This document shows positions 9,112 to 32,553 of a stretch of 64,000 bases of DNA, piece by piece. Each line of letters begins with the position of its first letter. The first letter of the stretch is position 1. The position numbers and the translations under genes were made by a program. This DNA is from a phage, in assembly GCA_024683775.1 (NCBI GenBank), contig GCA_024683775.1_4106.1; one strand, 5' to 3'. Below the pieces are notes generated by a model, which worked only from the letters and a program-made list of their open reading frames with translations, made no database searches and was not told where the DNA came from.

Positions 9112-9118
9112 GATTAAA

Positions 9119-9144
9119 GGGTTGACTTCGGTCAGCCTTTTTTT
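9119..9144 (+). terminator. intrinsic terminator (GGTTGAC-TTCG-GTCAGCC plus T7)
   Basis: stem-loop with UUCG tetraloop followed by T-run directly after the sigma-like gene. Confidence 0.7.
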
Positions 9145-9771
9145 ATGGGACAAATTTATTAATGGTGATACAATGATCTATGTACAATCACAATGACAGT
9201 ACTGGTACTGACAATCTTCCCCTACTTCACTTGAAAATGTAAAGGATAGATGAGCTTTTCATTGTAGCGAACAGCAAAAGAAACCCGTTAGATGTGGGCA
9301 TAGTTTGAACCCCTCACGGCAATGCGGCTGTATAAAGAACCACGTTAGGATAGCTGGTGGTTCCTCGATAGACATATAAGGATAACACCTTACGAATTAT
9401 CTAAGGGAGAGTTATCGAATTTTGTACAGGAAAGTTGCGTCCAAAATTTGAGTACTCACATTAAGTATTTGATTGCATAGATACTTAATGAAGATACACT
9501 ATGTTTAAAAGTGTAGACCGTCATATGAAACTGAAGTAGAGAGAAACAGGATGACCCGCTTTCGCACTCGTTATGAGTAATCTTCAATGCAATAGCTCTG
9601 ATACCATCAGCGTCAAATTTCCCTCCGTGCGGGGGGAAGAAAAATCCCTTCCTCAAATCCCGTCAATATTAAAAGTCCTTGACAGTTATGATTCATTCGC
9701 GTAGAATACGTAGTATTAGAAGCGAACAGACATCTCGAAGAGATGGATGATTAACCATTGAGGAATATCTA

Positions 9772-11507: not shown

Positions 11508-11535
11508 TTGACATAAGATATCAGTACTGTATAAT
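11508..11535 (+). promoter_or_regulatory. sigma70-like promoter TTGACA-N16-TATAAT with CAGTACTG spacer
   Basis: consensus hexamers read directly; followed by ~90-nt leader before the 11629 gene. Confidence 0.6.
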
Positions 11536-11628: not shown

Positions 11629-11937
11629 ATGTTTCAAACTAACACTCAAGGTTTTGTAATCATCGATTTGAACCAAAACAGCGGTTATTGGATGAAACCT
11701 ACTGACGCATGTATGCAGTTTGATTTTTTAGGTTACAGGATTAGTGTAAGTACTGGTGCTTCTGTACTGCGTGGTGGTTGTATCGTTGAACATCTGGTAA
11801 CAGATCCTGAAGGCCGTGAGTATGAAATCGCAGGTTCAGTACAAGATGCCATTATGTTTGTATGTCAGCGTGAAATGAATAGTTCGAATTCAAATGCACT
11901 GACTCATGCTCTTTCTCAAGAAGTGGAGGTTCGTTAA
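11629..11937 (+). CDS. hypothetical protein
   Basis: 102-aa ORF. Confidence 0.5.
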   Translation: MFQTNTQGFVIIDLNQNSGYWMKPTDACMQFDFLGYRISVSTGASVLRGGCIVEHLVTDPEGREYEIAGSVQDAIMFVCQREMNSSNSNALTHALSQEVEVR

Positions 11938-12188
11938 TGAAATATATCGTAGCAGTACTCGTTGCATTTTTACTCACTGCATGTGACGCTTCAACCAAAG
12001 AACGCACAAGTGATTTTATTCTCCCTATTGAATTACAAGAAGCAGGATGTAAGATTTATCGTATGCAAAAGGACGGTGCTGGCGTAACCTTGTATACAGT
12101 TTATTGCCCTAATGCAAATACCAGTACTGGATACAGCAGCGGTAAAACACGAATCAATACTTCAGTGATTAATGGAGTACAACAATGA
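11937..12188 (+). CDS. putative lipoprotein
   Basis: signal peptide with lipobox-like LTAC. Confidence 0.5.
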   Translation: MKYIVAVLVAFLLTACDASTKERTSDFILPIELQEAGCKIYRMQKDGAGVTLYTVYCPNANTSTGYSSGKTRINTSVINGVQQ

Positions 12189-12553
12189 GCCTTGATACAA
12201 CCCGTGCAACAGATTTATTAACTCGTCTGAATGATGAAGAATATCTTGCTGAAATAAAGTACAAGCTTGAAAAACTGGCACGAAGTGCTGAAGTAATTGA
12301 AGTTAAAGGTCATTTACCAATGGATCAATTCCATACGTTCAAAGAAGATATGGTTTATTATCCAAATGAAATTTGGATTGAGTGGGAACATTGGACTAAC
12401 AAAACTCTACGCATTGAAGGTTATTGTGTAAATTATGAATCTGAACCTGGTGATGTTACAAAAACTCTCTCCATTTGGTGTACAAAAACACATGAACTAG
12501 TTGAGGTGAATTTGAATTATATGAAAGGTTTCCGTTGGGGTGATGTTAAATGA
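12185..12553 (+). CDS. hypothetical protein
   Basis: 122-aa ORF, ATGA overlap. Confidence 0.45.
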   Translation: MSLDTTRATDLLTRLNDEEYLAEIKYKLEKLARSAEVIEVKGHLPMDQFHTFKEDMVYYPNEIWIEWEHWTNKTLRIEGYCVNYESEPGDVTKTLSIWCTKTHELVEVNLNYMKGFRWGDVK

Positions 12554-12825
12554 TTAAAAAACTATTGACAGTTGTCTTTGTATTCTGTACAATGTTTCTT
12601 ACAGCATGTAATGATGACGGCAGGTTTAGTGCAAAAGACTTAGTTCGTCAGGATTGTACATTCACAGGTAAGTCTTTTATTAACGAGTATGAGGTATGTA
12701 CACAATCAGGCCGTATCTGTGGTGGTTGGGAAAAACGTCAGGAGAGATTGTATGTATATGAATGCCCTGGACATCTCAACAAAGTACTAAGCACACACAA
12801 ACTTGTTTATGATAAGGTTGAATAA
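12550..12825 (+). CDS. putative lipoprotein
   Basis: signal peptide with lipobox-like LTAC. Confidence 0.5.
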   Translation: MIKKLLTVVFVFCTMFLTACNDDGRFSAKDLVRQDCTFTGKSFINEYEVCTQSGRICGGWEKRQERLYVYECPGHLNKVLSTHKLVYDKVE

Positions 12826-13040
12826 TGACTACCAATGAAATGATGCAGGTTATTTGGGATAAAGGTTGTGATATTAAAATCACTAGTACTGATGTTCGTG
12901 TATTCAAAACTGAATATATGGAGTACTTGGACCTTGATACTTATAATAATATTGTATCAATTGAACACAAAGGTGCAGTACTGGAAACAATTGACGTAGT
13001 ACTGAAGAAAGCTACCGACCTATTAGGAGCGGCAGTGTGA
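12825..13040 (+). CDS. hypothetical small protein
   Basis: 71-aa ORF. Confidence 0.45.
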   Translation: MTTNEMMQVIWDKGCDIKITSTDVRVFKTEYMEYLDLDTYNNIVSIEHKGAVLETIDVVLKKATDLLGAAV

Positions 13041-13183
13041 ATAACAAAGAGTGGGAAGAGTACCGTAAGAAGTGCAGGGAGTTTGATAAAGAACTAACTG
13101 GTACAGTGAATGCAGTAATGTGGGTATCTGTAATTATTGCAGTTCTTGCGTTGGGTGCTATTATTATTAATAAATTATTCTAA
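13037..13183 (+). CDS. 48-aa small membrane peptide (GTG start, below ORF-track cutoff)
   Basis: hand translation gives a C-terminal hydrophobic helix VMWVSVIIAVLALGAIII. Confidence 0.25.
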   Translation: MNNKEWEEYRKKCREFDKELTGTVNAVMWVSVIIAVLALGAIIINKLF

Positions 13184-13193
13184 GGCGAATATC

Positions 13194-13394
13194 ATGTTTA
13201 CTTTATATCTCGCAGTAGTTCTCACCAATGGTGAAATCACTCGTACTATTGGTGAAGGTGTATATAAAACACCAGACCAGTGCTACTCTGCTACTCATTG
13301 GCCTCGCGATAGTGGGGATGAAACTCGCACTGAATTCAAATGCATGAAAGTAAAAGGTGATTTTGTTAACCTTAAGGTTATCGAGGCGAAATAA
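13194..13394 (+). CDS. hypothetical small protein with N-terminal hydrophobic segment
   Basis: ATG at 13194 preferred over upstream TTG start of the track ORF. Confidence 0.45.
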   Translation: MFTLYLAVVLTNGEITRTIGEGVYKTPDQCYSATHWPRDSGDETRTEFKCMKVKGDFVNLKVIEAK

Positions 13395-13909
13395 TGGATA
13401 TTAATGAGTTGTTGATCTTATTGTTTAATCGTGGAAATGATGTAAGACGTTCTGAATATCAAGACAAAATTCACATTGAAACTGATAAATGTTATGGTAA
13501 AACAACTCATGAGATTTTGAAGCCAAATGGCAAACGATATGCCGATGTATGTTTTCATGAACGAAGTGATGGTAGTGAAATAATCAGTACTGAAATTGTG
13601 TTTTATGATAGATCCTCGGCAGGTTCGTATGAAATAGAACTTATATATTGCCCTGGTTCAGAAACACACAATAAACGTCAGATATTATATGATGTTTATT
13701 CACCTCCAGGTGTAGCTGAATATTTTGTTATTGATTACAGTACTGAAGAAAGTGTGTTTCAACAGAGCTTGATTCATAACTTCCAGTTGAATGATCCAAA
13801 TGTACCAAAGTTGTTCAAACTACTCGATACTATCGATGTTGATTTTGAATTTGTTATGTGCATTAGAACTTCCTTGATCGATGAATTTATGGAACTACTT
13901 AATATATGA
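13394..13909 (+). CDS. hypothetical protein
   Basis: 171-aa ORF. Confidence 0.5.
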   Translation: MDINELLILLFNRGNDVRRSEYQDKIHIETDKCYGKTTHEILKPNGKRYADVCFHERSDGSEIISTEIVFYDRSSAGSYEIELIYCPGSETHNKRQILYDVYSPPGVAEYFVIDYSTEESVFQQSLIHNFQLNDPNVPKLFKLLDTIDVDFEFVMCIRTSLIDEFMELLNI

Positions 13910-14127
13910 ATCGTTACTACATTGTGTATGAGCATGTATCTGAGTTTAATAATGTACGTGGTTATAAGAAAGAAGTACAGAAGATTGATGTATTTGTTCG
14001 TGCATTAAGTCCAACACATGCACTATTTAAATTGTTTGATGAAGTAACTAAGTACAACACATCAAAAACACAACGCTATATTGAAACAGTACATAGTGTA
14101 ATACTCACTGAATATGATGGAGAATGA
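13906..14127 (+). CDS. hypothetical small protein
   Basis: 73-aa ORF. Confidence 0.45.
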   Translation: MNRYYIVYEHVSEFNNVRGYKKEVQKIDVFVRALSPTHALFKLFDEVTKYNTSKTQRYIETVHSVILTEYDGE

Positions 14128-14130
14128 CAA

Positions 14131-14349
14131 ATGAATTTATATCTAGTTGAAGGGTCAGTACAAGTATCCAAGCAAGACGGAGAAGGGTATCGTTTTTCAC
14201 ATGTAGAATATTTTAAGTACGTAGTAAAGGCCGATGGTCAGTACGACGCAGAAATTCAGGTTGAAGAATCATTCCGTAAGAAGAATGATATTGGTAAATT
14301 TGAATACCAAGACTTACAATTCACTGTATGGCCTAGTATTAATGACTAA
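14131..14349 (+). CDS. hypothetical small protein
   Basis: 72-aa ORF. Confidence 0.45.
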   Translation: MNLYLVEGSVQVSKQDGEGYRFSHVEYFKYVVKADGQYDAEIQVEESFRKKNDIGKFEYQDLQFTVWPSIND

Positions 14350-14557
14350 GATGTGGTGGTGTCATGGTGTCTACAATGTCTATGAATATGGTAGATTCAA
14401 AATGAGCAGTACCTATGCCAGACGTGTTAATGCGAAAACCCAAGTTGATGCTGCTTGTGAGATTGTAGAGTGGTATGCAGAGTTCAATGCAATTGAATAT
14501 ATGTACGAAATAGTTACAATAAATGTTGTACAAATTGACACGTCTTTGATACAATAA
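14342..14557 (+). CDS. hypothetical small protein
   Basis: internal ATG of track ORF 14234..14557 chosen to minimise overlap. Confidence 0.35.
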   Translation: MTKMWWCHGVYNVYEYGRFKMSSTYARRVNAKTQVDAACEIVEWYAEFNAIEYMYEIVTINVVQIDTSLIQ

Positions 14558-14590
14558 CTACATCAAAAAACAACTGCAACTGAGGATACT

Positions 14591-15253
14591 ATGTTAGTTA
14601 ATCTTAATTTCATCACTTCTCCTGATTGGGCATTGCGTGGTGTTTCTTTGAACTTTAAAGAAACTAATTTCGACTACATTGGTGATTGTACTTTAGTTAA
14701 TGCTAAATTTGATCCTCATCATCCTTTTTGGGCTGAAATTCATGATCCTAATGTAAACAATAGTACATCTGTTATGACTATTGTACAGACGAAACATACA
14801 GGTATCCTCGCAGGTTACAGACCAGGACATGCGATTGAACACTTCACTGATTATGATGTAGTAGATGAGTATCCAATGATCCATGAAGATGGAAGTTTAT
14901 ACACGTCAGAAGACTTCCGTGCTATCTTTAATAGTACTGATGACATTCTACCAAGTGGTCGTCCACGTCCTGAGTCTTATCTTATGCACTCGTCTTATGG
15001 TGTAGCAGATACGCTTGAACAGATTTTGACGAAGTACAAGAACCTTATTGAAGGTCCAGAAGAAATTGTCATGTGCTATCATCCAGTACTGAAGTCTGAC
15101 CAACCAGAGAGTGGTGGGTGGCGTTGGCATAAGAATGGTGAGTACATCGGTACTAAGCGTAGTAAAGAACGCTTTGAGTACTTGTATGATGAGCCAGATG
15201 TTGAGGTTGTTTTATGTTATAATTTTCTTAAGGTGAAAAAGAAATGTATCTAG
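14591..15253 (+). CDS. hypothetical protein
   Basis: 220-aa ORF. Confidence 0.55.
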   Translation: MLVNLNFITSPDWALRGVSLNFKETNFDYIGDCTLVNAKFDPHHPFWAEIHDPNVNNSTSVMTIVQTKHTGILAGYRPGHAIEHFTDYDVVDEYPMIHEDGSLYTSEDFRAIFNSTDDILPSGRPRPESYLMHSSYGVADTLEQILTKYKNLIEGPEEIVMCYHPVLKSDQPESGGWRWHKNGEYIGTKRSKERFEYLYDEPDVEVVLCYNFLKVKKKCI

Positions 15254-15486
15254 TATTGAGTTTTGTAGTTGCATTATTGTTTATGTTCTACCCTACACTA
15301 GTAGCAGTAGCCACTAAACGAAAGCTGGTGGATATCACTACTGTATTCTTGCTAAACGTGGCACTCGTTCTAGTGTCTATTATCATTCCCGTGAGCTTTA
15401 CGGTTATTGATATGGCATCTGTATTACTATTCGTCTTCAGTTATCTTATGCTTATTGAAGAAAAACCTGTTGACAAACGTTTGTAG
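15244..15486 (+). CDS. hypothetical small membrane protein
   Basis: two hydrophobic segments. Confidence 0.45.
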   Translation: MYLVLSFVVALLFMFYPTLVAVATKRKLVDITTVFLLNVALVLVSIIIPVSFTVIDMASVLLFVFSYLMLIEEKPVDKRL

Positions 15487-15497
15487 TACTGTATAAT
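15470..15497 (+). promoter_or_regulatory. sigma70-like promoter TTGACA-N16-TATAAT with CAGTACTG spacer
   Basis: hexamers read directly; lies inside the 3' end of the upstream ORF. Confidence 0.55.
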
Positions 15498-15544
15498 GGT
15501 TCTTGTAGTCTGAAACTTAACACTTAAACTTGAGGATATAAAAC

Positions 15545-15871
15545 ATGTTATCAGTTCTAATTTCAATTCCTGCTCTAATTCTGTTATGGGTTATGGTTTT
15601 CGAATTCTTCATTAAAGACGAAACCGAGCGTGATGAGTTTCGTGAGTTGTTTATGCTAGACTCACCTATTGCACGAATCTTCTTTGTTGTAGTACTTATT
15701 TCAGTACTGTCATGGTTAGTAAGTTTTGTATTACCAATTGGACCATTTGTTTCAATTATGAATTTAGTTGAGAACATTGTCGGTATTGTGTGGTTTATTA
15801 ATGCATTGTTTGCTGGTAAAGTTTCCATTTGGTTTGATATCTTGAAAGATAAACTAACTAGTAAGAAGTAA
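15545..15871 (+). CDS. hypothetical small membrane protein
   Basis: 108-aa ORF with hydrophobic segments. Confidence 0.5.
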   Translation: MLSVLISIPALILLWVMVFEFFIKDETERDEFRELFMLDSPIARIFFVVVLISVLSWLVSFVLPIGPFVSIMNLVENIVGIVWFINALFAGKVSIWFDILKDKLTSKK

Positions 15872-15949
15872 CGTTCAAAAAGTCTCTAATAGTATTAAAT
15901 ACTTCTGTACAAATAATATGTGCAGAAGTATTGCTCGTTAGAGGTTATA

Positions 15950-16315
15950 ATGAAAAAATATATAAGAATGATAATGGTGTTTGTAGTATTCATGCTTTAT
16001 TCAAGGTTCAGTACAGCCGTACCTGCTTACCTTGATTGTATGGGAAACGATGGAACATGGCATGTACTTTCTAATGACCCACAAAATGGAAACAATATTG
16101 TCGTAGATAATGAGGTTTACCGTTTCAGGGCCGAGAGTTTGATTGGGAATAAAAAGGTATCGACATATAAATCAGATGCTGGTATAATAGCAAATGTAAT
16201 ATTGATAGTGGACCCCAAGACAAAGGATGGGGATATTTACATAGTCATTTATCAAGATTCGTCGAACAAACGCGATCAGGATATTGATAAATTGAATATT
16301 CATTGTGAACTTTAA
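15950..16315 (+). CDS. hypothetical secreted protein
   Basis: ATG at 15950 with GAGG RBS; signal-peptide-like N-terminus. Confidence 0.5.
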   Translation: MKKYIRMIMVFVVFMLYSRFSTAVPAYLDCMGNDGTWHVLSNDPQNGNNIVVDNEVYRFRAESLIGNKKVSTYKSDAGIIANVILIVDPKTKDGDIYIVIYQDSSNKRDQDIDKLNIHCEL

Positions 16316-16325
16316 GGTATAACAA

Positions 16326-16709
16326 ATGATCAACGATGTAATGCTTTATGTATTAATTACTCCGATTCTTATTAACTCAGTAATAACTATTTCAATGGCA
16401 TTATTTGGTATAGTAGCAATTGTTTATGCGGTTAGTACTGGAAAGTATACTTTAATTAGTAAGGTTGATTCATGGTTCGCATCTGATAGTGTACCATATT
16501 CAGCTAGTATGATTACGATTGGTATTCTAATCGTTGCATTTACACTGCACTGTATTGGTTTTATTAATACAAGTATTTTTTCAGTTTTTATTGGTCTATC
16601 ATTATATCCATCACTTTGGTACTTGATTTATGTAATCGATGTTTGGTATAATAACTACAAGCAGTACAAAGTGAAGAAATCCATTTTATCCAAAGGAAAC
16701 AAATCATGA
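16326..16709 (+). CDS. hypothetical membrane protein
   Basis: 127-aa ORF with several hydrophobic segments. Confidence 0.5.
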   Translation: MINDVMLYVLITPILINSVITISMALFGIVAIVYAVSTGKYTLISKVDSWFASDSVPYSASMITIGILIVAFTLHCIGFINTSIFSVFIGLSLYPSLWYLIYVIDVWYNNYKQYKVKKSILSKGNKS

Positions 16710-17056
16710 AAGTAATTTTGTTTTTTGTTTGTATGATTATATGTGGTATGTCTTATGCAGAACCATTACCTGGACTAGTCTGTACTGAAGGTGATATTAA
16801 ACACATTTACCAAGGTGATAGCGATGACCATACTATCGTTTATATCGATGGTGAAGTGTATAATTTTGTTAAAGAACATACTGTAGGTGACATTAGTTTT
16901 ACGCAGTACTCGAATGATACTGATCCCAATATGCTTGCATTTCTTCAAGTTGATGTATATGAAGAAAGTAATGGCGAACAGTATGTTAAACTTGTGATGA
17001 TGCGTAAGGCAGCAAAACAGGCAACATTCGGTGGCTTGTGTAAATATGAGGACTAA
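16706..17056 (+). CDS. hypothetical secreted protein
   Basis: signal-peptide-like N-terminus MKVILFFVCMIICGMSYA. Confidence 0.5.
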   Translation: MKVILFFVCMIICGMSYAEPLPGLVCTEGDIKHIYQGDSDDHTIVYIDGEVYNFVKEHTVGDISFTQYSNDTDPNMLAFLQVDVYEESNGEQYVKLVMMRKAAKQATFGGLCKYED

Positions 17057-17060
17057 ACAT

Positions 17061-17252
17061 ATGTTGATTTATCAATGTGATAACATTCGTGTTATGCAGC
17101 ATCCCTACTTACAAATCTTTGATGTGCAGCAGTATATGGAAGGTGATGATCCAAGAACCTATGGTCGTAAGTATGATTACTTCACTGTAAAGCAGTGTCG
17201 TGACATCAAAGAAGTACGACAATTAGTTCAAGAACTTCAAAATAAAGGTTGA
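17061..17252 (+). CDS. hypothetical small protein
   Basis: ATG at 17061 with GAGGA RBS. Confidence 0.4.
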   Translation: MLIYQCDNIRVMQHPYLQIFDVQQYMEGDDPRTYGRKYDYFTVKQCRDIKEVRQLVQELQNKG

Positions 17253-17278
17253 CTTCGGTCAACCTTTTTTGTTATAAT
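17247..17278 (+). terminator. dual terminator-promoter element (hairpin GGTTGAC-TTCG-GTCAACC, T6, TATAAT)
   Basis: -35-like TTGACT lies inside the terminator stem; TATAAT 18 nt downstream. Confidence 0.7.
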
Positions 17279-17307
17279 TATTTCATCAACTACTGGGGAT
17301 TTTAATT

Positions 17308-17748
17308 ATGTACGTATATCGTTTTGAACTTAAATTCAGTTATATTGAACCTAACTTAGATCCAGCAAAAACAGTAGGGCCGTTCGCACGGTACTCTTCA
17401 CGATACAGTACTAAAAATGGATTTGACCGTTTGTGCATGACCACGCCTTCGCAATTCCAACCAGAACCAACTGAAGATGGAATCTATTCAATCAAACGTG
17501 GCTGGGCATTTGGCTGTCAGAGTTTGAATGATTTGTTTAAGTTCTTTACTATGGACTTGGGTAAATTACATCGTGCAGGGTTTGCTGTATCAGTATATGA
17601 AGTTCCTGATAATCATGTTGACATTGGTCGTAGTCAGGTTCAGTACTATTGTGGTAGTGCCAATCTGGTTCGTATCATGTCAGTGAGAGAAGCAAAGGAT
17701 GAGTACCGCCAAAGTAAAAGAGTAATACATGAGGCTGTATATGGATAA
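17308..17748 (+). CDS. hypothetical protein
   Basis: 146-aa ORF. Confidence 0.5.
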   Translation: MYVYRFELKFSYIEPNLDPAKTVGPFARYSSRYSTKNGFDRLCMTTPSQFQPEPTEDGIYSIKRGWAFGCQSLNDLFKFFTMDLGKLHRAGFAVSVYEVPDNHVDIGRSQVQYYCGSANLVRIMSVREAKDEYRQSKRVIHEAVYG

Positions 17749-18085
17749 GACTCAAATAGAATTAAAAAAATTTGTATCGTTTTATCTACCCAATGACCCA
17801 CGTTGTACACAATATGATGTTGCATATTACAATGCATTGACTACGCAGTTAATGAAGAAATTCAAACAATGTTTGACTGTATTCAATGATGATGGTAGAC
17901 GTAGATATAGAATCATTCCAATGAATGATGAAAACGATAACTACTTTGACTTTGATGTTGTTTTTAGAGCATACAGTGATGATAGAATAAAATTAAATTA
18001 TGAGCAAATAATGCTTGACCTGAGTGTTATCTGTGTTATAATTACTCACATAGCCGAACTTGATGGTTTAAAAGAATGGTATTAA
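17729..18085 (+). CDS. hypothetical protein
   Basis: 118-aa ORF; alternative start 17741. Confidence 0.45.
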   Translation: MRLYMDKTQIELKKFVSFYLPNDPRCTQYDVAYYNALTTQLMKKFKQCLTVFNDDGRRRYRIIPMNDENDNYFDFDVVFRAYSDDRIKLNYEQIMLDLSVICVIITHIAELDGLKEWY

Positions 18086-18099
18086 CTTAGAGGATAATC

Positions 18100-18366
18100 A
18101 TGAAGCTTAAATTACAATACAATGGTTTTACTTTGCGTAACGACACTGAGTTTGTCAATCGTTCACCAGGTGCCGAGTTGTTTTTGCGAGAGATGAACAT
18201 TCCTTTCGTCATCACTACTGTTGGTGACCGTGAAGTGCTACAATACGCAGAGCATCCAGTTATTGATGTTCCGTGGTATTCTGAGCATATGTATATGGAT
18301 ATGGCCCGTCGCTACGACTGTAAGTTCGTAGTTGAAGGTGATAAAATTACAGTCCAATTCAAATAA
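18100..18366 (+). CDS. hypothetical small protein
   Basis: 88-aa ORF. Confidence 0.45.
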   Translation: MKLKLQYNGFTLRNDTEFVNRSPGAELFLREMNIPFVITTVGDREVLQYAEHPVIDVPWYSEHMYMDMARRYDCKFVVEGDKITVQFK

Positions 18367-18377
18367 GGTAACTTAAA

Positions 18378-18671
18378 ATGATCAGTACTTCAGTAAATGC
18401 AAGCATCGTGGCAGACGTAGAAATGGTTAAAGAATGTACAGACGAAACCCTTCGCAACATGTACATCAATGATTTGATTTCAGAGTACGGAAGTCGTGGT
18501 GTTCATGAGTTTGTTCGCCTAAGCGGTGAATTGATGAAGAATCGCATTCGTATGAAGCTTAATGTGCATCCAAAAGCATGGGCGTTTACAATGAAGTACG
18601 CTGAAGATATTGTTGAATTGCGTCGCAATGATGTGTATAATCGTTTACACAATGGTACATTAAAGGACTAA
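18378..18671 (+). CDS. hypothetical small protein
   Basis: 97-aa ORF. Confidence 0.45.
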   Translation: MISTSVNASIVADVEMVKECTDETLRNMYINDLISEYGSRGVHEFVRLSGELMKNRIRMKLNVHPKAWAFTMKYAEDIVELRRNDVYNRLHNGTLKD

Positions 18672-18721
18672 ATTATAGGAATCCGTAAAAGGATTCCTGT
18701 TCTTGTTTATAAGGTAATAAA

Positions 18722-18946
18722 ATGAAATATCTAGTACTAGTACTGCTATTCTTGAGTACTGTTGTATGTGCTAAACCAAAGTATCATGTAGTGTGTATCA
18801 ACGAGATGGAAGGGTATACTGAAACATATAAGAACCATATTGTTGAAGTTGCAGCCCAAGGTTCCTATGGGACCATCATCTTCCTTAAGAACAATGTGAT
18901 TGTTCAGTACAAAAAAGATTCAAATTGTAAAGTGACTAAAAATTGA
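18722..18946 (+). CDS. hypothetical small secreted protein
   Basis: signal-peptide-like N-terminus MKYLVLVLLFLSTVVCA. Confidence 0.45.
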   Translation: MKYLVLVLLFLSTVVCAKPKYHVVCINEMEGYTETYKNHIVEVAAQGSYGTIIFLKNNVIVQYKKDSNCKVTKN

Positions 18947-19016
18947 TCTAGATCAATTTTTCAGATATTCTCTGTAAATAATAGCAGTACAGAACATTAT
19001 TTTACGGAGGTGTAAT

Positions 19017-19253
19017 ATGGAAACTATAATCATCATATGTGCGTTGTTTGCATTTTTGGTAATGTGGTCACCAACATTCATTGCATATAAAATGAAAAAT
19101 AAAAATGCAGAAGCAATTATGTACGTAAACTTATGTTGCATACTAACTTATGGAATACTTTTATTCTTTACTGAATTTACATTAATCCCAGTAGTAGTTT
19201 GTTCATCAATGTTTATTTGGTTGTTTCTGCTTTATGAATCTATTAAAAAATAA
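19017..19253 (+). CDS. hypothetical small membrane protein
   Basis: 78-aa ORF with two hydrophobic segments. Confidence 0.45.
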   Translation: METIIIICALFAFLVMWSPTFIAYKMKNKNAEAIMYVNLCCILTYGILLFFTEFTLIPVVVCSSMFIWLFLLYESIKK

Positions 19254-19307
19254 AAGATATAGGGTTGGTAATATGCCATCCCTTTTACTTTATGTGGGGT
19301 TTAATTA

Positions 19308-19880
19308 ATGAATAGAAAAGGTAAGTTTAAAGTATCAAAGAAGAACAAAAGTTCTAGATTTAGACCTATAACTTTAACTTTTAAGGCTAAAGAAGAATTA
19401 ACTGCACTTAGTAAAAAGATAATTTCATCTAAGATTAAAGTATCATACGTAAATTCGGTAAAATTTCAGAAGGTTAAACCACAAGACAAACTCATTTCAC
19501 TTATATTTAAACGTAATGATTTTGAGATATTAGTAGATGATTATAGAGCCTATAATGCTGGATTCATTCATGTCACTTGTAATACCGAACTAACTGAGTT
19601 GGAACATTTGACATGTATCATAAGTGTAGATAACGGTGTGGTGAAGTACAATTTTTTACATTTTACCAATATCAATAATGGAATGGGTGTACAATCCAGA
19701 CCTATAGTACCTACATGTGATGTAACTAATTTAGCAAAGCTCAATGAAGAAGAATATTTTCAAGAAAGCATTGTAACTGAGCATTTAGATGCTATAATAG
19801 CAACTTACAAAGAATGCATATGGGTTTTGAATGCGATAAAGCCCAAATTGTGTTTAATGAATGTCGTTCGTGATTTATAA
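19308..19880 (+). CDS. hypothetical protein
   Basis: 190-aa ORF. Confidence 0.5.
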   Translation: MNRKGKFKVSKKNKSSRFRPITLTFKAKEELTALSKKIISSKIKVSYVNSVKFQKVKPQDKLISLIFKRNDFEILVDDYRAYNAGFIHVTCNTELTELEHLTCIISVDNGVVKYNFLHFTNINNGMGVQSRPIVPTCDVTNLAKLNEEEYFQESIVTEHLDAIIATYKECIWVLNAIKPKLCLMNVVRDL

Positions 19881-19893
19881 CTGGAGATGAAGT

Positions 19894-20337
19894 ATGGGTT
19901 GGATTAACGTTAATAGCATTGAGCTAAATGAGCAAGACATATTTGCCTTTGTTAATTTGGTAGAGAACATTGCTATTAAAGGTCGTCTGTTTAGTTCATC
20001 GGACGGTAAAAAATGGATCTCTCTTATGAACGACAATGGCGAGATTTATGACGTTATGCAACTACCTCATTGGGCTTATAAGAATACATCTGATGATGTG
20101 ATGGCTGCTGTTATGCGTGAGTTTGAGAAGCTGCCAGGTGGTGATATTAAGAACATCGTATTCAATGCAGAACGCATGAACTACACACCAGAGCAGCTTC
20201 AACAGTTGGCAATTGCTGCCTATCAAGCTGCCATTAAGAAACCTGAATGTGTGATATTAAAGTACACACCGAACTTGAAGTTAACACTAGAAGATATGGA
20301 TTCCTTTATCTTCAGTTCAGAACTTAAACAGTACTGA
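19894..20337 (+). CDS. hypothetical protein
   Basis: 147-aa ORF. Confidence 0.5.
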   Translation: MGWINVNSIELNEQDIFAFVNLVENIAIKGRLFSSSDGKKWISLMNDNGEIYDVMQLPHWAYKNTSDDVMAAVMREFEKLPGGDIKNIVFNAERMNYTPEQLQQLAIAAYQAAIKKPECVILKYTPNLKLTLEDMDSFIFSSELKQY

Positions 20338-20448
20338 TTTGACTTTGGAACAACCATTTCATATGTGATATAATCTTAAGTGTCTGTTGAAATAAACAGC
20401 ACATGAAGTATAAATATTAAAGTAATTTATCTCTTTAAGGAGTATGAA

Positions 20449-20832
20449 ATGGTTGATAAATGGAATAAGAAAGATCCATCGCATGATGTGGATATTTCTG
20501 GAATTGATAATGCACATAAGCATAAGTATCTTGATTCACTAGGTCTACTAAAGCCTGACCAAAGTCTTGCACATGATCGTCCTTCACGTGAAAAAGCTTT
20601 CAGTCTAGAATCACTAGGCCATGAATTGAATCGTGTATTTGAAGATCATCCAATTTATGTACGTGATATCATTGAGAAACTTAAAGTGACTCCTAAAGAG
20701 CACTTCAAGGCAACAGTACACGCAGCATTCCGTGCACTACATGAAGCACTAAAGAAAACTCATAACCTTCGCAAGATTCATGATGACATCGTGAACTCTA
20801 TTGAAGGCGAAAAACATAAGTTTAAAAAATAA
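20449..20832 (+). CDS. hypothetical protein
   Basis: 127-aa ORF; extended -10-like TGATATAAT upstream near 20365. Confidence 0.5.
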   Translation: MVDKWNKKDPSHDVDISGIDNAHKHKYLDSLGLLKPDQSLAHDRPSREKAFSLESLGHELNRVFEDHPIYVRDIIEKLKVTPKEHFKATVHAAFRALHEALKKTHNLRKIHDDIVNSIEGEKHKFKK

Positions 20833-20838
20833 TTAAAA

Positions 20839-20872
20839 GGGGTTGACTTCAGTCAGCCCTTTGTCGTATAAT
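20839..20872 (+). terminator. dual terminator-promoter element
   Basis: GGGTTGAC-TTCA-GTCAGCCC hairpin, then TATAAT 18 nt after the embedded TTGACT. Confidence 0.6.
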
Positions 20873-20919
20873 ATTTTCATCAAGTGATACAAAATACAAA
20901 CAACGTGAGGTATTAAATT

Positions 20920-21033
20920 ATGCAAGGTACTAAATTCATCATCGCTGCCCTAATCGCTGCTGTTGTAGTGGGTACAGTATGTTATTCAATTGACACCTAT
21001 ATCAATACACCTAGTGTTGAACAAACCAAATAA
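20920..21033 (+). CDS. 37-aa hydrophobic micro-peptide (below ORF-track cutoff)
   Basis: ATG with GAGG RBS; hand translation MQGTKFIIAALIAAVVVGTVCYSIDTYINTPSVEQTK. Confidence 0.35.
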   Translation: MQGTKFIIAALIAAVVVGTVCYSIDTYINTPSVEQTK

Positions 21034-21041
21034 GGGATATC

Positions 21042-21299
21042 ATGGCTGAAACATTATCACTATATGCGTTAGTACTGTTATTTGTCGGATTTCTTCCCGC
21101 ACTCATTACAGCCATTCGTGTTGTTAAACATGAAGCTGCATTGATTGTATGTAGTATTGGGTCGAACATTCTATTGTATTTCTTTTTGACAAATACTATT
21201 GTACTGTTTGCTTTCTTTATCATGATTCTGTGGGTACTTGTAATTCTCGGATTCTTCATTTGGTCATTGGTTGATCCTAAGAAAAAACAGGAGAAGTGA
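21042..21299 (+). CDS. hypothetical small membrane protein
   Basis: 85-aa ORF with hydrophobic segments. Confidence 0.45.
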   Translation: MAETLSLYALVLLFVGFLPALITAIRVVKHEAALIVCSIGSNILLYFFLTNTIVLFAFFIMILWVLVILGFFIWSLVDPKKKQEK

Positions 21300-21300
21300 A

Positions 21301-21597
21301 ATGAAATTAATTATTGTAATGATGATGTGTTTGGCTTTCCCAGTACTGGCTACTCCTAATCTGGACTGCACACTGTTGCGTTCAGATGGTGACACACTTG
21401 AAATCAACACATATGAACTCTTTGGTCCAAGTGTAGTGGAGAATGAAACCACCTACAATTTCAAAGCTATTGACTTTGAAGGTAATGTTCCAGTACTAAC
21501 TACAATGACTATTGACAAAACTACTTTACTCGGACGAATCACCACACAACGCGGAGAAAGTAAAACATTCACAGCGAAAGCTGACTGTAACTACTAA
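21301..21597 (+). CDS. hypothetical small secreted protein
   Basis: ATG at 21301 with GGAG RBS; signal-peptide-like N-terminus. Confidence 0.45.
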   Translation: MKLIIVMMMCLAFPVLATPNLDCTLLRSDGDTLEINTYELFGPSVVENETTYNFKAIDFEGNVPVLTTMTIDKTTLLGRITTQRGESKTFTAKADCNY

Positions 21598-21618
21598 TGG
21601 TATAGTACAGTGAAAATA

Positions 21619-21649
21619 GGGTTGACTTCGGTCAACCTTTATATATAAT
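21619..21649 (+). terminator. dual terminator-promoter element
   Basis: GGGTTGAC-TTCG-GTCAACC hairpin, then TATAAT 16 nt after the embedded TTGACT. Confidence 0.65.
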
Positions 21650-22190
21650 GGAAGAAATAAACATGGAACGTTGGAAATTAATTCCTGATTATGACTATTC
21701 AATTTCTGATCATGGAAGAGTAAGAAACGAACAAACTGGATATATAAGTTGTGGATTTAAAAATAAAGATGGGTATGTGAAGGTCGATTTGTATCGCAAT
21801 TCTGTGAAAAATAGAAAGGCGATTCATCGACTAGTAGCTGAAGCATTTTTACCACCACCCACACAGAAACAGTTACAGTGGGCAAGTAGAACAAAGAAAA
21901 AAGTTGTTCACATAAACCATAAAGATTGTAATAGAAGTAACAATCACTATTTGAATTTGGAATGGAACACAGCATCTGAAAACGTACTATATTCTTATTC
22001 ACATGGTAACGCAACAACTAATCGTGGTGCTGCTGTGTTGACATGGGAAATTGTAAGAGAAATAAGAAAAGATTATAATGATAATTATAATGATGTGATA
22101 GAATATGCACGAGAAAATTGTAATAAATACCGTGTATGTAAAAAAACAATACGTCGTATTTTATACAATCAAACATGGATAGAGGATTAA
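21648..22190 (+). CDS. HNH homing endonuclease-like protein
   Basis: N-terminal WKLIPDY...GRVRN motif and HINHKDCNRSNNHYLNLEW...EN HNH-type motif. Confidence 0.65.
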   Translation: MEEINMERWKLIPDYDYSISDHGRVRNEQTGYISCGFKNKDGYVKVDLYRNSVKNRKAIHRLVAEAFLPPPTQKQLQWASRTKKKVVHINHKDCNRSNNHYLNLEWNTASENVLYSYSHGNATTNRGAAVLTWEIVREIRKDYNDNYNDVIEYARENCNKYRVCKKTIRRILYNQTWIED

Positions 22191-22194
22191 AAAT

Positions 22195-23688
22195 ATGCCA
22201 CAAGATAATGGGGATATGAAACATCGTAATGGTGGACTAGTACAACACTCGGATAAATGGGCCGACCGAAATCGTCGCAAAAATAGTTATCAAGCAGGAC
22301 AAGGTTCACGTGGTTCACGTAATCAAGGGACAGGTTTAGCTGGTAAGGCAAACGCAGAAGCAGGTGAAGTTAAGAGTACTGAGAACATGACTGAGCTAGA
22401 AAAGCTACGTTATGTTAACTCATTAGGTCTTCTTAACGCAACACAGAAACAACGCCTTGCTGATATGGAACGTGCTGAGAAAGAACAAGCAGTTCCTAAA
22501 GAAGAACCAAAACCAGAAGCTCCTAAAGCAGCTAACCCTGTTAAAGAGTTATCTGATAACTTAGGTAAGATCTTTGCTAACAAACCACAGTTGATTCAGG
22601 GTATTGTCAAAGCACTACAGGCAGTTCCTAAAGAAGAACTCAAAGGTAAAGCACAAGCTGTACTTGATGCAATGAAAGGTAATAAGAGCACTGAACCCAC
22701 TGAAGTATTCAGTACTATCATGCGTGCACTTGAAGGTACACACAAAGAAGATTCGAAAGAACCTGAACAGGGTGAAGCAAGTCTTGATGGTATTCTTAAA
22801 ACTTTTGATAGTATTGGTAAAGCAGACCGTGCTAATGCCCAGCAAGTCAAGAATGTACTGGCTAAACTTGAAAACCGTTTAGAAGGTAAAGACGATAAGG
22901 TTAAGCTCGTATCAGATGCAGTTAACAGTGCACTTAAATCTTATGTACAAGGTGAGAAAAGTCGCTTCGTAACAGCTATGGATGCTGCATTCAACACTAT
23001 GAAAAAGTATGAAGCAGAACATGGTGAGAAAGTGACACCTGATGGATATCTACTACGTAAAGATGAAGAAGGTGCAGTTGAACAGAAAGATGTTGAGCCT
23101 GAGCAAGAAGATCTACCTGATACCGTTGATATGGATGGATACATTCATCGTCCTGAGATGGAAGAGTTTGGGTCAGATAAAGAAGGTTTTGAACATGCAA
23201 TGGCAGTATATAAAGCATTAGTTAAAAATCCAGATTATGCTAACCGTTTTGTTGACGAGTTTGATAGTGCATGGAATAACTACAAAGACAAAGGTTATGA
23301 CTTCCCTGCTGAAGCTGCATTCTTTGAACTTGGTAAACTATTAGCTAAACATGGAATTGACGTTGGTTCATCTGATTCTGACGGTATGGAAGAAGAACAT
23401 CTTGAAATGACTGATAAATCAATTCATGAACTTCAAAAGTTAATGATGTGGATATCCGAGATTGGTAAAAAAGCAGGTGCTGATAGTAAAAGTATCAACA
23501 AAAATATTAGTTGGATTAAAGATAATGTTGGTAACAATGCTCGTAAACTTCAAAAGGCTTGGGCTGATTTAGTAAATGGTGCAGATGATGTTGACATTGA
23601 ATCACCAGAAGCATATGAGTATGCACTAACTACACTTGATAACTCATTCAAAGAGTACGACCGTGGTGTTGGAAAGGATAAAAAATAA
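22195..23688 (+). CDS. hypothetical highly charged protein (497 aa)
   Basis: long ORF with basic Arg/Gly/Ser-rich N-terminus and Lys/Glu/Asp-rich body. Confidence 0.6.
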   Translation: MPQDNGDMKHRNGGLVQHSDKWADRNRRKNSYQAGQGSRGSRNQGTGLAGKANAEAGEVKSTENMTELEKLRYVNSLGLLNATQKQRLADMERAEKEQAVPKEEPKPEAPKAANPVKELSDNLGKIFANKPQLIQGIVKALQAVPKEELKGKAQAVLDAMKGNKSTEPTEVFSTIMRALEGTHKEDSKEPEQGEASLDGILKTFDSIGKADRANAQQVKNVLAKLENRLEGKDDKVKLVSDAVNSALKSYVQGEKSRFVTAMDAAFNTMKKYEAEHGEKVTPDGYLLRKDEEGAVEQKDVEPEQEDLPDTVDMDGYIHRPEMEEFGSDKEGFEHAMAVYKALVKNPDYANRFVDEFDSAWNNYKDKGYDFPAEAAFFELGKLLAKHGIDVGSSDSDGMEEEHLEMTDKSIHELQKLMMWISEIGKKAGADSKSINKNISWIKDNVGNNARKLQKAWADLVNGADDVDIESPEAYEYALTTLDNSFKEYDRGVGKDKK

Positions 23689-23698
23689 ACATTTAAAA

Positions 23699-23723
23699 GG
23701 TTGACTTCGGTCAACCTTTTTTT
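23699..23723 (+). terminator. intrinsic terminator (GGTTGAC-TTCG-GTCAACC plus T7)
   Basis: hairpin and T-run immediately after the 497-aa gene. Confidence 0.7.
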
Positions 23724-23759
23724 GTAAATATTGTAGAGGGTTTTATAAGAGGTAATGCA

Positions 23760-24011
23760 ATGTTTAAATATGTTTTATTTTCACTTGTATTGTTTACTGA
23801 TATAGTTTATAGTACTGAATACCAGTGCTCTATTGCTAGACAGGAGTTTAGAAACGGTGAGTTCTATACCAAGTCTTACACTAGAGGATTGGTACATGAC
23901 AATAATAAAACTATAGGGTTCAATGCATTTGATAACAAAGATCGATATACGTCTGGAATACTATCTGAACGTAAGTCGGATGTAATAGGTATCGAGCATG
24001 AATTCCGGTGA
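23760..24011 (+). CDS. hypothetical small secreted protein
   Basis: signal-peptide-like N-terminus. Confidence 0.45.
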   Translation: MFKYVLFSLVLFTDIVYSTEYQCSIARQEFRNGEFYTKSYTRGLVHDNNKTIGFNAFDNKDRYTSGILSERKSDVIGIEHEFR

Positions 24012-24372
24012 CACAGTTGCAATGTGTAATGATATTGAGAGTACTAAGAAAGTATATACTAATGGTGAAAATACCTTTAGATTCCACAATCTTACTACCA
24101 ATGAAAGTTTATACTTCTACAACTGTAAAGAGTTCATTAAACCTGTGGATAACTCATGTGATATGCCGGAGCCAAAAGCTGCTGTATGTGAGGAACCACA
24201 ATCCAAAGCTGACAAAGATTCAAAAGATAAGAAAGACAAAGCTGACAAATTGGATAAAAAAGAAAACAAAAAGAAAGCTAAAGATGATAAAGATAAAAAG
24301 TCCCCTAAGCCAAATCCATTTGAAAAGCCAAAGAATGAAAAGCCAAAACCAGACATGACATGTAAAATATAA
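23998..24372 (+). CDS. hypothetical protein with Lys/Asp-rich low-complexity C-terminus
   Basis: 124-aa ORF with KDKKDKADKLDKKENKKKAKDDKDKK tail. Confidence 0.45.
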   Translation: MNSGDTVAMCNDIESTKKVYTNGENTFRFHNLTTNESLYFYNCKEFIKPVDNSCDMPEPKAAVCEEPQSKADKDSKDKKDKADKLDKKENKKKAKDDKDKKSPKPNPFEKPKNEKPKPDMTCKI

Positions 24373-24379
24373 AAGAAAA

Positions 24380-24412
24380 GGGTTGACTTCGGTCGGCCCT
24401 TTTTGCTATAAT
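24380..24412 (+). terminator. dual terminator-promoter element
   Basis: GGGTTGAC-TTCG-GTCGGCCC hairpin, T-run, then TATAAT. Confidence 0.65.
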
Positions 24413-24438
24413 CATTTCATCAACTACTGGAGGCAAAC

Positions 24439-24852
24439 ATGTTAAAAGTTATTTTCCGTTCTATCAGTTCATTACTTCTTATGATTAGTTCAGTTTCTTA
24501 TGCAAATGAAGTATCTGACTTGTTTGAGAAGAATTACCCAACTGCACAAGAGATGGGTGTTTTAAAATGCAAGCTAACTTCGTACAACATCATCGGCAGT
24601 AAACTTGTACTGGAACATGAACGTAGTACACCAATCCCTCTAGTAGAAGAAGGCAGTACCTTTAGCTTCAAGTACGGGGTGAACGTAACATCTGGTGTAA
24701 TGAACAATGTTGATGCAGAGACTGGTTCAACATGGAGTACTAGCGGTAAAGATGTGTTTCATCGTATGCGTGAAAATGGTAAACTGAAGTACGTATATGA
24801 AAGTTCATTCATGAAACGTGTATTCATTATAAAAAATTGTGTACCAGCATAA
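24439..24852 (+). CDS. hypothetical secreted protein
   Basis: signal-peptide-like N-terminus. Confidence 0.5.
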   Translation: MLKVIFRSISSLLLMISSVSYANEVSDLFEKNYPTAQEMGVLKCKLTSYNIIGSKLVLEHERSTPIPLVEEGSTFSFKYGVNVTSGVMNNVDAETGSTWSTSGKDVFHRMRENGKLKYVYESSFMKRVFIIKNCVPA

Positions 24853-25148: not shown

Positions 25149-25487
25149 ATGGAACATCATTTTGAATTAATTAATAAGGTATCATTTTATGTAGTATCGT
25201 TAATTTGGGTGTATTACATGTTTTGTTACATTATTGCATTCTTCCGATACACAACCTTGTATCAACGCATATACTACGATGCACCCATTTCATTTATGAT
25301 GTTCTGTGCATGTACGTGGGGGATAATTGAAGCACTGGTATGTGGATATAGTACTGACGAATTAAATCTCGTATCGGGGTTGACATTACTAACAATTGCC
25401 ATTATGATAGCTACTGTTCCGATATTTTTGCTCTTTAAACTGCTTCATCGTATTGATGAGTGGCGTAATAAAATCCCTGAAAAGTAA
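25149..25487 (+). CDS. small membrane protein, paralog family B member 1
   Basis: 3-4 hydrophobic segments; C-terminal EWRNKIPEK tail shared with paralogs. Confidence 0.55.
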   Translation: MEHHFELINKVSFYVVSLIWVYYMFCYIIAFFRYTTLYQRIYYDAPISFMMFCACTWGIIEALVCGYSTDELNLVSGLTLLTIAIMIATVPIFLLFKLLHRIDEWRNKIPEK

Positions 25488-25496
25488 GGATTGATA

Positions 25497-25838
25497 ATGA
25501 TTTTTTACACTAATGCGTTTGCTTATGCCGTTGCATCAATCTACATTGTGTACTTCTTATTTGGTGGAGTACTGTACTTCTTTAAGTACAAAACATTGTT
25601 TAACCGAATGTATCCAAATCATCCAATTGTAGTAGTACTTTTGATTATTTCTGTTGCTCACATCATTGTAGAAACAATAATGGGTATCAGTGCAGTACAT
25701 TACAGTCTAGGTACTATTGTAATTATTACTATGATCATCGCATACATTTTAGTAATGGGTTTTGGTTTATTTGGAAATGTAGCAATGAAATTGTATAATC
25801 GAATCAAAACATTACGTGATAATCTACCGGAGCGTTGA
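25497..25838 (+). CDS. small membrane protein, family B member 2
   Basis: C-terminal LRDNLPER tail; ATG at 25497. Confidence 0.55.
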   Translation: MIFYTNAFAYAVASIYIVYFLFGGVLYFFKYKTLFNRMYPNHPIVVVLLIISVAHIIVETIMGISAVHYSLGTIVIITMIIAYILVMGFGLFGNVAMKLYNRIKTLRDNLPER

Positions 25839-25839
25839 G

Positions 25840-26184
25840 ATGTATAATTTAAATTTAATATCATATATCATAACAACACTGTTTACTTTCTATGCCTTTG
25901 TTGGTATACTCCTACTGTACTTTAAATTTTATAAACTTTTTGATCGTTTTTATCCGTCATTAGAACATGAATTCTTATTAGTGATGTACATATGTCTAAC
26001 GTTTATGTCTACATTTTTCACTGCATCTGATGGTATCATTGGTATTAAAGCTGAAGAACCAAATGGGAGTACGCTTGTTGCCTTTATTCTGGTAGGATTT
26101 TTCAGTACTTATATTACCTTTATTTCAGGATGTACCGTGATTGATTATCTTGTGAAATTACGAGATAAAATGCCAAATCGATAG
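25840..26184 (+). CDS. small membrane protein, family B member 3
   Basis: C-terminal LRDKMPNR tail; ATG at 25840 with GGAG RBS. Confidence 0.55.
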   Translation: MYNLNLISYIITTLFTFYAFVGILLLYFKFYKLFDRFYPSLEHEFLLVMYICLTFMSTFFTASDGIIGIKAEEPNGSTLVAFILVGFFSTYITFISGCTVIDYLVKLRDKMPNR

Positions 26185-32188: not shown

Positions 32189-32189
32189 C

Positions 32190-32552: not shown

Positions 32553-32553
32553 A

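Follow-up and report, generated by a model that had tools for sequence, protein, structure and literature searches.

Small exported proteins in a gene block of an Asteriusvirus and their possible role in protecting the infected cell's envelope

What would a phage achieve by placing a series of small exported proteins in the envelope of the cell it infects? The question is raised by a 64,000-nt stretch of DNA (the window; GenBank assembly GCA_024683775.1, contig GCA_024683775.1_4106.1) from a jumbo Escherichia phage of the genus Asteriusvirus (121Q/PBECO4 group). Jumbo phages are under development for therapy, and more than 80% of their genes are without known function. From 1 to ~33 kb the window carries small genes, nearly throughout on the plus strand, and nearly all of them are labelled 'hypothetical' in public records; between 11500 and 25000 it is 99.7% identical to EC.P1, 99% to fEgEco12 and vB_Ec-M-J, and ~85% to 121Q, G17 and SHEFM2K. 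A sequence-only reading of the window had picked out nine small open reading frames (ORFs) with signal-peptide-like starts in this part, two of them with an LTAC lipobox, and had proposed superinfection exclusion, receptor masking or envelope remodelling as their function. We find that export of the nine proteins to the envelope is well supported by their predicted signals, and we regard protection of the infected cell's envelope as the best explanation of the block as a whole, with about an even chance of being correct.

Export signals of the nine ORFs

All nine ORFs are present on the plus strand at the positions proposed, and each has a Shine-Dalgarno (SD)-like motif 4-8 nt before its ATG. 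The longer upstream starts of two of them, GTG 15920 and TTG 21271, are without such a motif, and the starts at 15950 and 21301 are therefore taken to be right; the ORF placed at 4293 likely starts at ATG 4299. The predicted products are listed below, with an arrow at each predicted signal peptidase I (SPase I) site.

4299-4757, plus strand: predicted exported protein, 152 amino acids (aa), VHA↓E site, charged mature part with 2 Cys; phrog_36332 (unknown function)
11937-12188, plus strand: predicted lipoprotein, 83 aa, LTAC, Cys16, Asp at +2, two more invariant Cys; phrog_902
12550-12825, plus strand: predicted lipoprotein, 91 aa, LTAC, Cys20, Asn-Asp at +2/+3, four more Cys; phrog_31263
15950-16315, plus strand: predicted secreted protein, 121 aa, STA↓V site, paralog of 16706; predicted PliC/MliC-like beta-barrel fold
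16706-17056, plus strand: predicted exported paralog of 15950, SYA↓E site; same PliC/MliC-like fold family
18722-18946, plus strand: predicted secreted protein, 74 aa, 2 Cys, VCA↓K site
21042-21597, plus strand: protein with three transmembrane (TM) segments (21042-21299) abutting a predicted secreted 98-aa protein (21301-21597; 2 Cys, VLA↓T site)
23760-24011, plus strand: ORF1 of a split gene, predicted signal peptide (VYS↓T site) plus 65 aa, single Cys
24439-24852, plus strand: predicted secreted protein, 137 aa, 2 Cys, SYA↓N site; promoter 24383-24412 upstream

Export was predicted with a lenient and a strict rule set. The lenient set uses n-, h- and c-regions together with the (-3,-1) rule or a lipobox, with 15950 read from its ATG. 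For SPase I substrates the n-region had to carry positive charge, the hydrophobic h-region to span 7-15 residues free of charge, the residues at -3 and -1 to be small and cleavage to fall at ~15-30; for lipoproteins a lipobox [LVI]-[ASTVI]-[GAS]-C had to close the h-region with its Cys at ~15-35. The lenient rules call all nine ORFs, seven of them as SPase I substrates (4299, 15950, 16706, 18722, 21301, 23760 and 24439; six under the strict rules), and they predict LTAC-D and LTAC-N sites in the two lipobox ORFs, 11937 and 12550, as the sequence-only reading had it. The strict rules are passed by nine of the 124 genes, namely eight of the nine ORFs and ORF 6939. The sole cause of failure of the remaining one, 23760, is an Asp in the c-region; its 121Q ortholog (MKKYIIFGIVLFSSTSYG↓ADY) is without this Asp and has a textbook signal peptide. 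ORF 6939 (6939-7199, 86 aa, beginning MKSILVAVNLVASPS), with two mature Cys, was missing from the earlier list.

We considered whether these hydrophobic N-termini arise by chance in AT-rich small ORFs, the proteins not being exported at all. Among shuffled or reversed proteins the lenient rules do find 3-6% positive, and among antisense ORFs 12%. However, the strict rules, with false positives in 0.2% of shuffled, 0/124 reversed and 0/58 antisense sequences, still call eight of the nine, and every strict positive falls in one block: all lie within 4.3-24.9 kb, with 9/55 genes positive in 3.4-26 kb vs 0/69 elsewhere (Fisher p=4.5e-4), which bears out the proposed clustering. Within the interval given for the cluster (11937-24852), 8/33 genes are predicted to be exported and five further ones encode multi-pass membrane proteins. 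Chance is further contradicted by conservation, since signal architecture and Cys pairs are kept at 40-70% identity and in families of 21 and 46 members. In the 21-member 15950/16706 family and the 46-member 11937 family, down to their most distant representatives, the sequence of the N-terminal 18-25 residues drifts freely while the architecture is fixed and the Cys are invariant. Likewise, the 121Q-type orthologs of 15950, 16706, 18722, 23760 and 24439 are 40-78% identical and all keep the charged-hydrophobic-small N-terminus and the Cys; 18722 retains its signal peptide and both Cys at only 50% identity in 121Q, the 4299 protein retains its signal peptide at 87%, and 121Q-type genomes carry two paralogs of the 24439 family. 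We therefore consider an origin of these N-termini by chance very improbable. Eight of the nine ORFs have two or four mature Cys, usually with one toward each end, in keeping with disulfide bonding in the periplasm; 23760, with one, is the sole candidate with an odd count.

On sequence comparison the exported proteins are several unrelated families, a point that the sequence-only reading had not seen. PHROG places most candidates in genus-restricted families of unknown function and has no match for ORFs 21301, 23998 (the downstream part of the split gene) and 24439, and scans of all candidates with Pfam, NCBIfam and PADLOC gave nothing above threshold. The only detectable paralogs among them are 15950 and 16706 (blastp E=4e-5; cross-PHROG match). 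A single superfamily was considered and rejected: hhalign comparisons of the 15950/16706, 24439, split-gene and 21301 families aligned signal peptides only or reached at most 24% probability, the weak 24% match being that of 21301.

We also analyzed how the block may be transcribed, scanning positions 1-33000 for near-consensus sigma-70 promoters (at least 11/12 matches). There were 19 on the plus (coding) strand and none on the minus strand, with 1.1 +/- 1.0 expected. Several lie directly 5' of candidate genes or operons (11508, 15470, 20843 and 24383), among them the following.

11508-11535, plus strand: perfect 12/12 sigma-70-like promoter, 5' of the operon with both lipoprotein genes

Some near-consensus promoters are joined to a terminator hairpin, GGTTGACTTCGGTCAACC, an identical 18-nt element followed by a T-run that occurs at 17247-17264, 21620-21637 and 23699-23716. 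The TTGAC of this hairpin doubles as the -35 box for a downstream TATAAT, so that each copy unites terminator and promoter in a cassette that recurs between early transcription units. The 19 vs 0 promoters favor the suggestion that this is an early region, and the block is probably transcribed early by host RNA polymerase.

Lipoproteins, a predicted beta-barrel pair and proposed protection of the envelope

The reading we favor is that a fast-evolving, partly accessory Asteriusvirus block places a set of small phage proteins in the envelope of the infected cell. These would comprise two lipoproteins, no fewer than seven disulfide-bonded proteins exported by Sec to the periplasm and, interleaved with them, small polytopic inner-membrane proteins. 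The periplasmic proteins would protect the already infected cell from attack from outside, by superinfection exclusion or against lysis from without. The basis of this reading is analogy with known systems together with the fold resemblance of one family, the pair 15950/16706.

Both members of the pair are predicted by structure modelling to be 8-stranded antiparallel beta-barrels with the fold and the ~90-100-aa size of MliC/PliC. Of two invariant Cys, Cys8 falls within predicted strand 1 (residues 6-10) and Cys94 within strand 8 (residues 90-96), a placement that would suit a strand1-strand8 disulfide such as that of the PliC, MliC and ACP inhibitors. The only invariant non-Cys loop residue is G43, part of a conserved T-[VI]-G-[DN] turn between predicted strands 4 and 5. 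PliC is a Sec-exported protein of 90 aa with two Cys, and MliC is an 8-stranded barrel held by a disulfide (PMC2267010); MliC, PliC and ACP share the strand1-strand8 disulfide, and loop 4 reaches into the active site of the lysozyme (PMC5507604). MliC, PliC and the related ACP and PhiA are inhibitors of lysozymes or peptidoglycan hydrolases (PMC2267010, PMC5507604, PMC8334348), and ACP inhibits lysozyme through the same fold without the SxSGAxY and YxxxTKG motifs (PMC5507604). The family itself is tiny and phage-encoded, with ~11 representatives among 1.84 billion proteins.

We propose that the pair may bind and inhibit peptidoglycan hydrolases, for example GH24 lysozymes in the tails of incoming phages. 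A plausible target is the T4-type GH24 lysozyme encoded by asteriusviruses, annotated in 121Q as baseplate hub/tail lysozyme (PMC12805682); the copy in the present phage is the homolog of 121Q YP_009102173. In T4 the early, periplasmic, disulfide-bonded Spackle protein excludes superinfecting phage by inhibiting such a tail lysozyme (PMC7677548). Like Spackle (gp61.3, the inhibitor of the gp5 tail lysozyme; PMC7677548, PMC7650644), 15950 and 16706 are small, disulfide-type periplasmic proteins with a cleaved signal and probable early expression, all by prediction. However, Spackle inhibits its target allosterically and is a bundle of alpha-helices, while the pair are predicted beta-barrels and have no sequence similarity to it; they would do Spackle's job with a different fold. 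With moderate confidence we describe 15950/16706 as working like MliC/PliC and do not file them as members of that family, because membership fails at the sequence level, yet ACP shows that inhibition can be motif-free.

In E. coli, Asp at +2 after the lipidated Cys leads to retention in the inner membrane by Lol avoidance. The lipobox of 11937 continues C-D-A and agrees with this rule, whereas that of 12550 continues C-N-D and does not. The lipobox is present in 44/45 members of the 11937 family, and the +2 residue is D in 28/44, N in 9 and E in 3. The 11937 protein is therefore predicted to stay on the inner membrane and probably acts at its periplasmic face rather than by masking an outer-membrane receptor. 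Its family is widespread and entirely uncharacterised: 572 phage genomes, drawn from five groups or more, carry a member, and a literature search found nothing on the family. In contrast, 12550 is genus-restricted and 97-99% conserved. A precomputed Pfam tag, PF16225, is attached to all 11937 homologs (P0002-P0075); hmmscan on local Pfam-A did not reproduce this tag in any of the members tested.

Public records name some of these genes after known exclusion systems: 11937 is 'Cor superinfection exclusion protein' in a few GenBank records, 11937, 12550 and 23760 are 'lytic conversion lipoprotein' in some, and the small membrane proteins 19017 and 21042 are 'immunity to superinfection' in some. 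Our comparisons do not support these labels. Cor (phi80/N15/HK022) and T5 Llp, which both block FhuA, resemble 11937 and 12550 as small phage lipoproteins with a canonical lipobox. However, 11937 matches phrog_902 (unknown function; E=5e-13) far better than the Cor profile phrog_1119 (E=9.4e-4, 20.6 bits, over residues 1-49 including the 15-residue signal peptide); phrog_902 is its real family, its Asp +2 points to the inner membrane, and structure comparison of its model found no structural neighbour. Furthermore, 23760 is not predicted to be a lipoprotein despite its label. ORFs 19017 and 21042 resemble T4 Imm (PF14373) in being small, polytopic and encoded beside secreted proteins, but the match of 19017 to PF14373 is below threshold (15.7 bits vs a gathering cutoff of 27.9, over 22 residues of TM helix), 21042 does not match the Imm Pfam family, and neither has a PHROG match. 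Thus, of the functions first proposed, direction to the envelope stands, while no member of the Cor, Llp, Imm or Spackle families is demonstrable; the functional idea gains different support from the lysozyme-inhibitor fold of 15950/16706 and its Spackle-like working.

A number of observations weigh against protection of the envelope as we have set it out. Both export rule sets are custom and are not SignalP or LipoP, and early transcription has the promoter consensus as its whole basis. The nine ORFs are more diverged from 121Q (median identity 72.5%) than the other 53 genes (88.4%), and this test of fast evolution is weak (one-sided Mann-Whitney p=0.04). For the pair, other small 8-stranded barrels (type VI secretion system (T6SS) immunity proteins, protease inhibitors, avidins and lipocalins) gave a Z only slightly lower. 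Neither 15950 nor 16706 has a Pfam or NCBIfam match, the best hit of their profile among PDB sequences is an unrelated protein (hemolysin II C-terminal domain, E 0.45), and an exhaustive profile search returned phage relatives only, with no bridge to bacterial MliC/PliC. SxSGAxY occurs in 0/21 family members, and YxxxTKG by chance in one of 21 and in 0/9 of the window ORFs. The known MliC/PliC inhibitors act on C-type (GH22) lysozymes, not on GH24. Finally, the fEgEco12 genome paper and papers on the genus discuss none of these exported-protein genes.

Two other functions were weighed for the exported proteins. They could regulate the phage's own lysis, as periplasmic antiholin-like sensors, inhibitors of its own GH24 enzyme or spanin-like proteins, with no exclusion involved; a lysozyme-inhibitor-like fold could equally target the phage's own muramidase (PMC12805682). 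T4 RI, an antiholin-like sensor of this kind, is also small and exported. But no holin, endolysin or i-spanin gene adjoins any candidate, the ORF between the two lipoprotein genes is without a TM segment, the Asp +2 of 11937 is unfit for an outer-membrane o-spanin, and strong host-type promoters are typical of early, not late, genes, all of which makes control of the phage's own lysis quite unlikely. A spanin reading of the lipoproteins in particular was rejected on the missing i-spanin and the Asp +2 of 11937, and the flanking ORFs 11629 and 12185 have no TM segment and no lysis gene nearby. Alternatively, the proteins could serve host takeover or anti-defence, neutralising envelope weapons of the host or of competitors (T6SS- or colicin-type peptidoglycan hydrolases, envelope-based abortive systems), or could remodel or mask receptors and so keep progeny from being lost on debris, as T5 Llp does. 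The same envelope location would suit such roles, but comparisons with Llp and Cor showed no resemblance in sequence or structure, the predicted place of 11937 in the inner membrane is away from outer-membrane receptors, and there is no PADLOC or defence-related signal; this reading is improbable, if a little less so than control of lysis.

If protection of the envelope is correct, the block is a compact envelope-directed gene set that probably decides the infected cell's dealings with other phages, which would be relevant to the design of phage cocktails. Should the barrel pair indeed inhibit muramidases, phages would have borrowed or reinvented a bacterial lysozyme-inhibitor fold for phage-phage competition, and GH24 lysozyme inhibitors would be added to the toolbox. 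Small exported proteins of virulent phages are a known phenomenon in kind; three features have not previously been described, namely a phage family with a predicted PliC-like fold, a very widespread lipoprotein family whose predicted site is the inner membrane, and a candidate for +1 recoding that is found throughout the genus.

A candidate +1 recoding site in the split gene 23760/23998

The recoding site concerns 23760, which, on comparison with homologs, is only the first half of a split gene, a point missed by the sequence-only reading. Downstream of ORF1 (23760-24011) lie the following features.

24003-24011, plus strand: candidate +1 recoding site TTC CGG TGA, then C; invariant in the Asteriusvirus junctions examined, except for TTT in G17
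24010-24372, plus strand: ORF2 of the split gene, +1 frame; lacks a signal peptide, has a tail rich in Lys and Pro and keeps 5 conserved Cys

In Munch-like phages, where the homologs are single ORFs, ORF2 corresponds colinearly to their C-terminal two thirds. Queried with ORF1 and ORF2 concatenated, 31/31 Asteriusvirus records hold the gene as two pieces, whereas it is a single annotated coding sequence in five distant jumbo phages (Salmonella Munch, PHA46, SE_PL and 7t3; Klebsiella fENko-Kae01). Two metagenomic contigs (~360 kb) also have it fused, and these were the only fused homologs that scans of IMG/VR and metagenomes added. Skipping the T of the TGA (GAA TTC CGG / GAC ACA GTT GCA ATG TGT) gives a 203-aa protein that aligns with the fused homologs without a gap at the junction (EFR-DTVAMC vs KAK-DNVAFC) and conserves all six Cys. 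The 23760/23998 gene is probably made as one exported 6-Cys protein by a +1 ribosomal frameshift at CGG_UGA. No public record annotates a frameshift here. Reading across the junction, and only that, would yield a trans-frame tryptic peptide, DTVAMCNDIESTK in the window clade (with a DSVAMC... variant) and DSVAMCNDIESTK in the 121Q clade.

The site has the form of known phage +1 sites, in which a rare or shifty codon precedes UGA, as in tsh of Listeria PSA/A118/A500 (CCC_UGA) and in E. coli prfB (CUU_UGA_C) (PMC5009743). As in these, the 0-frame ends with a rare codon and UGA (plus C in the window clade), an ORF continues in the +1 frame, the arrangement is genus-wide and single-frame homologs exist. 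TTY CGG TGA is invariant in the 17/17 junction sequences examined; CGG is the rarest Arg codon (12/633, 1.9%), and this is the sole CGG-stop ending among 116 genes. Both halves are under purifying selection, with a ratio of nonsynonymous to synonymous substitution rates (dN/dS) of 0.19 for ORF1 and a dN of ~0.3 with saturated dS for ORF2. The site differs from tsh and prfB in its P-site codon CGG, in the lack of a conserved stimulator and in its exported, non-structural product. A shift from CGG to GGU would probably leave the P-site tRNA-Arg unable to re-pair in the +1 frame, no SD-like stimulator is common to both clades, and no stimulatory RNA structure was found at the junction, and these points speak against a frameshift. 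Re-pairing is not needed in Ty3- and antizyme-type shifts.

The same points would suit a second view, in which the gene underwent fission into two, ORF1 encoding a secreted protein and ORF2 a cytoplasmic one translated by reinitiation at ATG 24022 or at 23998, with no frameshift. ATG 24022 is invariant with a GGTGA SD-like motif 10 nt upstream, and the window clade also has an ATG/GTG at 23998. However, the D-x-V-A of the fused homologs (DNVA[FY]C) is also encoded by the four codons before ATG 24022, and of the ~7 substitutions that five haplotypes imply in this spacer, read in the +1 frame, five are synonymous (P=0.02) and two are conservative. In the 121Q clade the +1 frame lacks any start codon before the ATG for the Met of 'AMC', and hence upstream of the D-x-V-A codons. 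The one Cys of ORF1 and the five of ORF2 add up to the six of the fused exported homologs, which is sensible only if ORF2 reaches the periplasm, and the rarity of CGG and its unique position before a stop also argue against fission. On balance, a programmed +1 frameshift, or another event giving the fused protein, has somewhat better than an even chance, and fission, at clearly less than even, remains a substantial alternative. A -1 frameshift was rejected as being in the wrong direction, and transcriptional slippage because there is no homopolymer run at the window-clade junction. In one record only (Salmonella phage SD-1_S14, L009), there is an extra frame break in the A-rich, Lys-coding tail of the ORF2 homolog, which is either a homopolymer sequencing error or real decay.

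If real, the +1 shift at CGG_UGA would be a rare genus-wide +1 recoding in a non-structural phage gene. A bolder combination, in which an unrecognised class of PliC-fold barrels inhibits the tail or endolytic muramidases of competitors as a reinvented Spackle while the CGG-UGA +1 shift, of a new type, makes the six-Cys protein and sets the proportion of short to long periplasmic products, is speculative and rather unlikely as a whole.

Neighbouring membrane proteins and the rest of the window

Secreted genes in the block often adjoin genes for small polytopic membrane proteins, as in 16326/16706, 21042/21301 and 18722/19017. Besides 21042, the neighbours are as follows.

15244-15486 and 15545-15871, plus strand: polytopic membrane proteins with 3 and 4 predicted TM segments; perfect promoter 15470-15497 between
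16326-16709, plus strand: 4-TM membrane protein; stop overlaps the 16706 start (ATGA)
19017-19253, plus strand: 3-TM membrane protein; absent from 121Q
21648-22190, plus strand: HNH_3/NUMOD4 homing endonuclease; shares a clade-specific insertion with 21042/21301

The ATGA overlap of 16326 and 16706 suggests translational coupling. Adjoining membrane proteins are also diverged from their 121Q counterparts (15545 with 60% and 16326 with 44% identity), and a duplicated cassette of a 4-TM and a secreted gene found no support, 15545 and 16326 not being detectably related; 19017 and 21042 are weakly similar (E=0.002). Part of the block is accessory: ORFs 19017, 21042, 21301 and 21648 are all absent from 121Q, and the pair 21042/21301 is also absent from G17 and SHEFM2K, as is the whole clade-specific insertion 21042-22190. 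The envelope pair 21042/21301 may move together with the 21648 endonuclease.

ARAGORN and Rfam at gathering thresholds found no tRNA gene and no RNA family in the window. Two stretches are poor in ORFs, 9112-9771, directly after a phage sigma-factor gene (8146-9111), and ~60400-62400. Families of paralogs occur as well. On the minus strand, 32962-55470 holds ~20 tandem paralogs of ~375 aa each with the N-terminus MLPF(A/V)RM(V/F)(K/D)YGN, which fEgEco12 names RCC1-like 'chromosome condensation regulator' or 'DNA condensation protein'; copies at 38569-38862 and 45693-45872 look truncated or disrupted, and ORFs are scarce in a gap at 44.8-45.7 kb. On the plus strand, 55575-60372 holds ~16 paralogous genes for proteins of 59-77 aa with a common N-terminal '...(K)E(F/Y)Y...' motif. 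Finally, tandem plus-strand arrays at 25149-26184 (three genes) and 30486-32925 (seven genes) encode proteins of 104-123 aa, mostly with 3 predicted TM segments, and these are further expansions of small, predicted inner-membrane proteins adjoining the exported-protein block.

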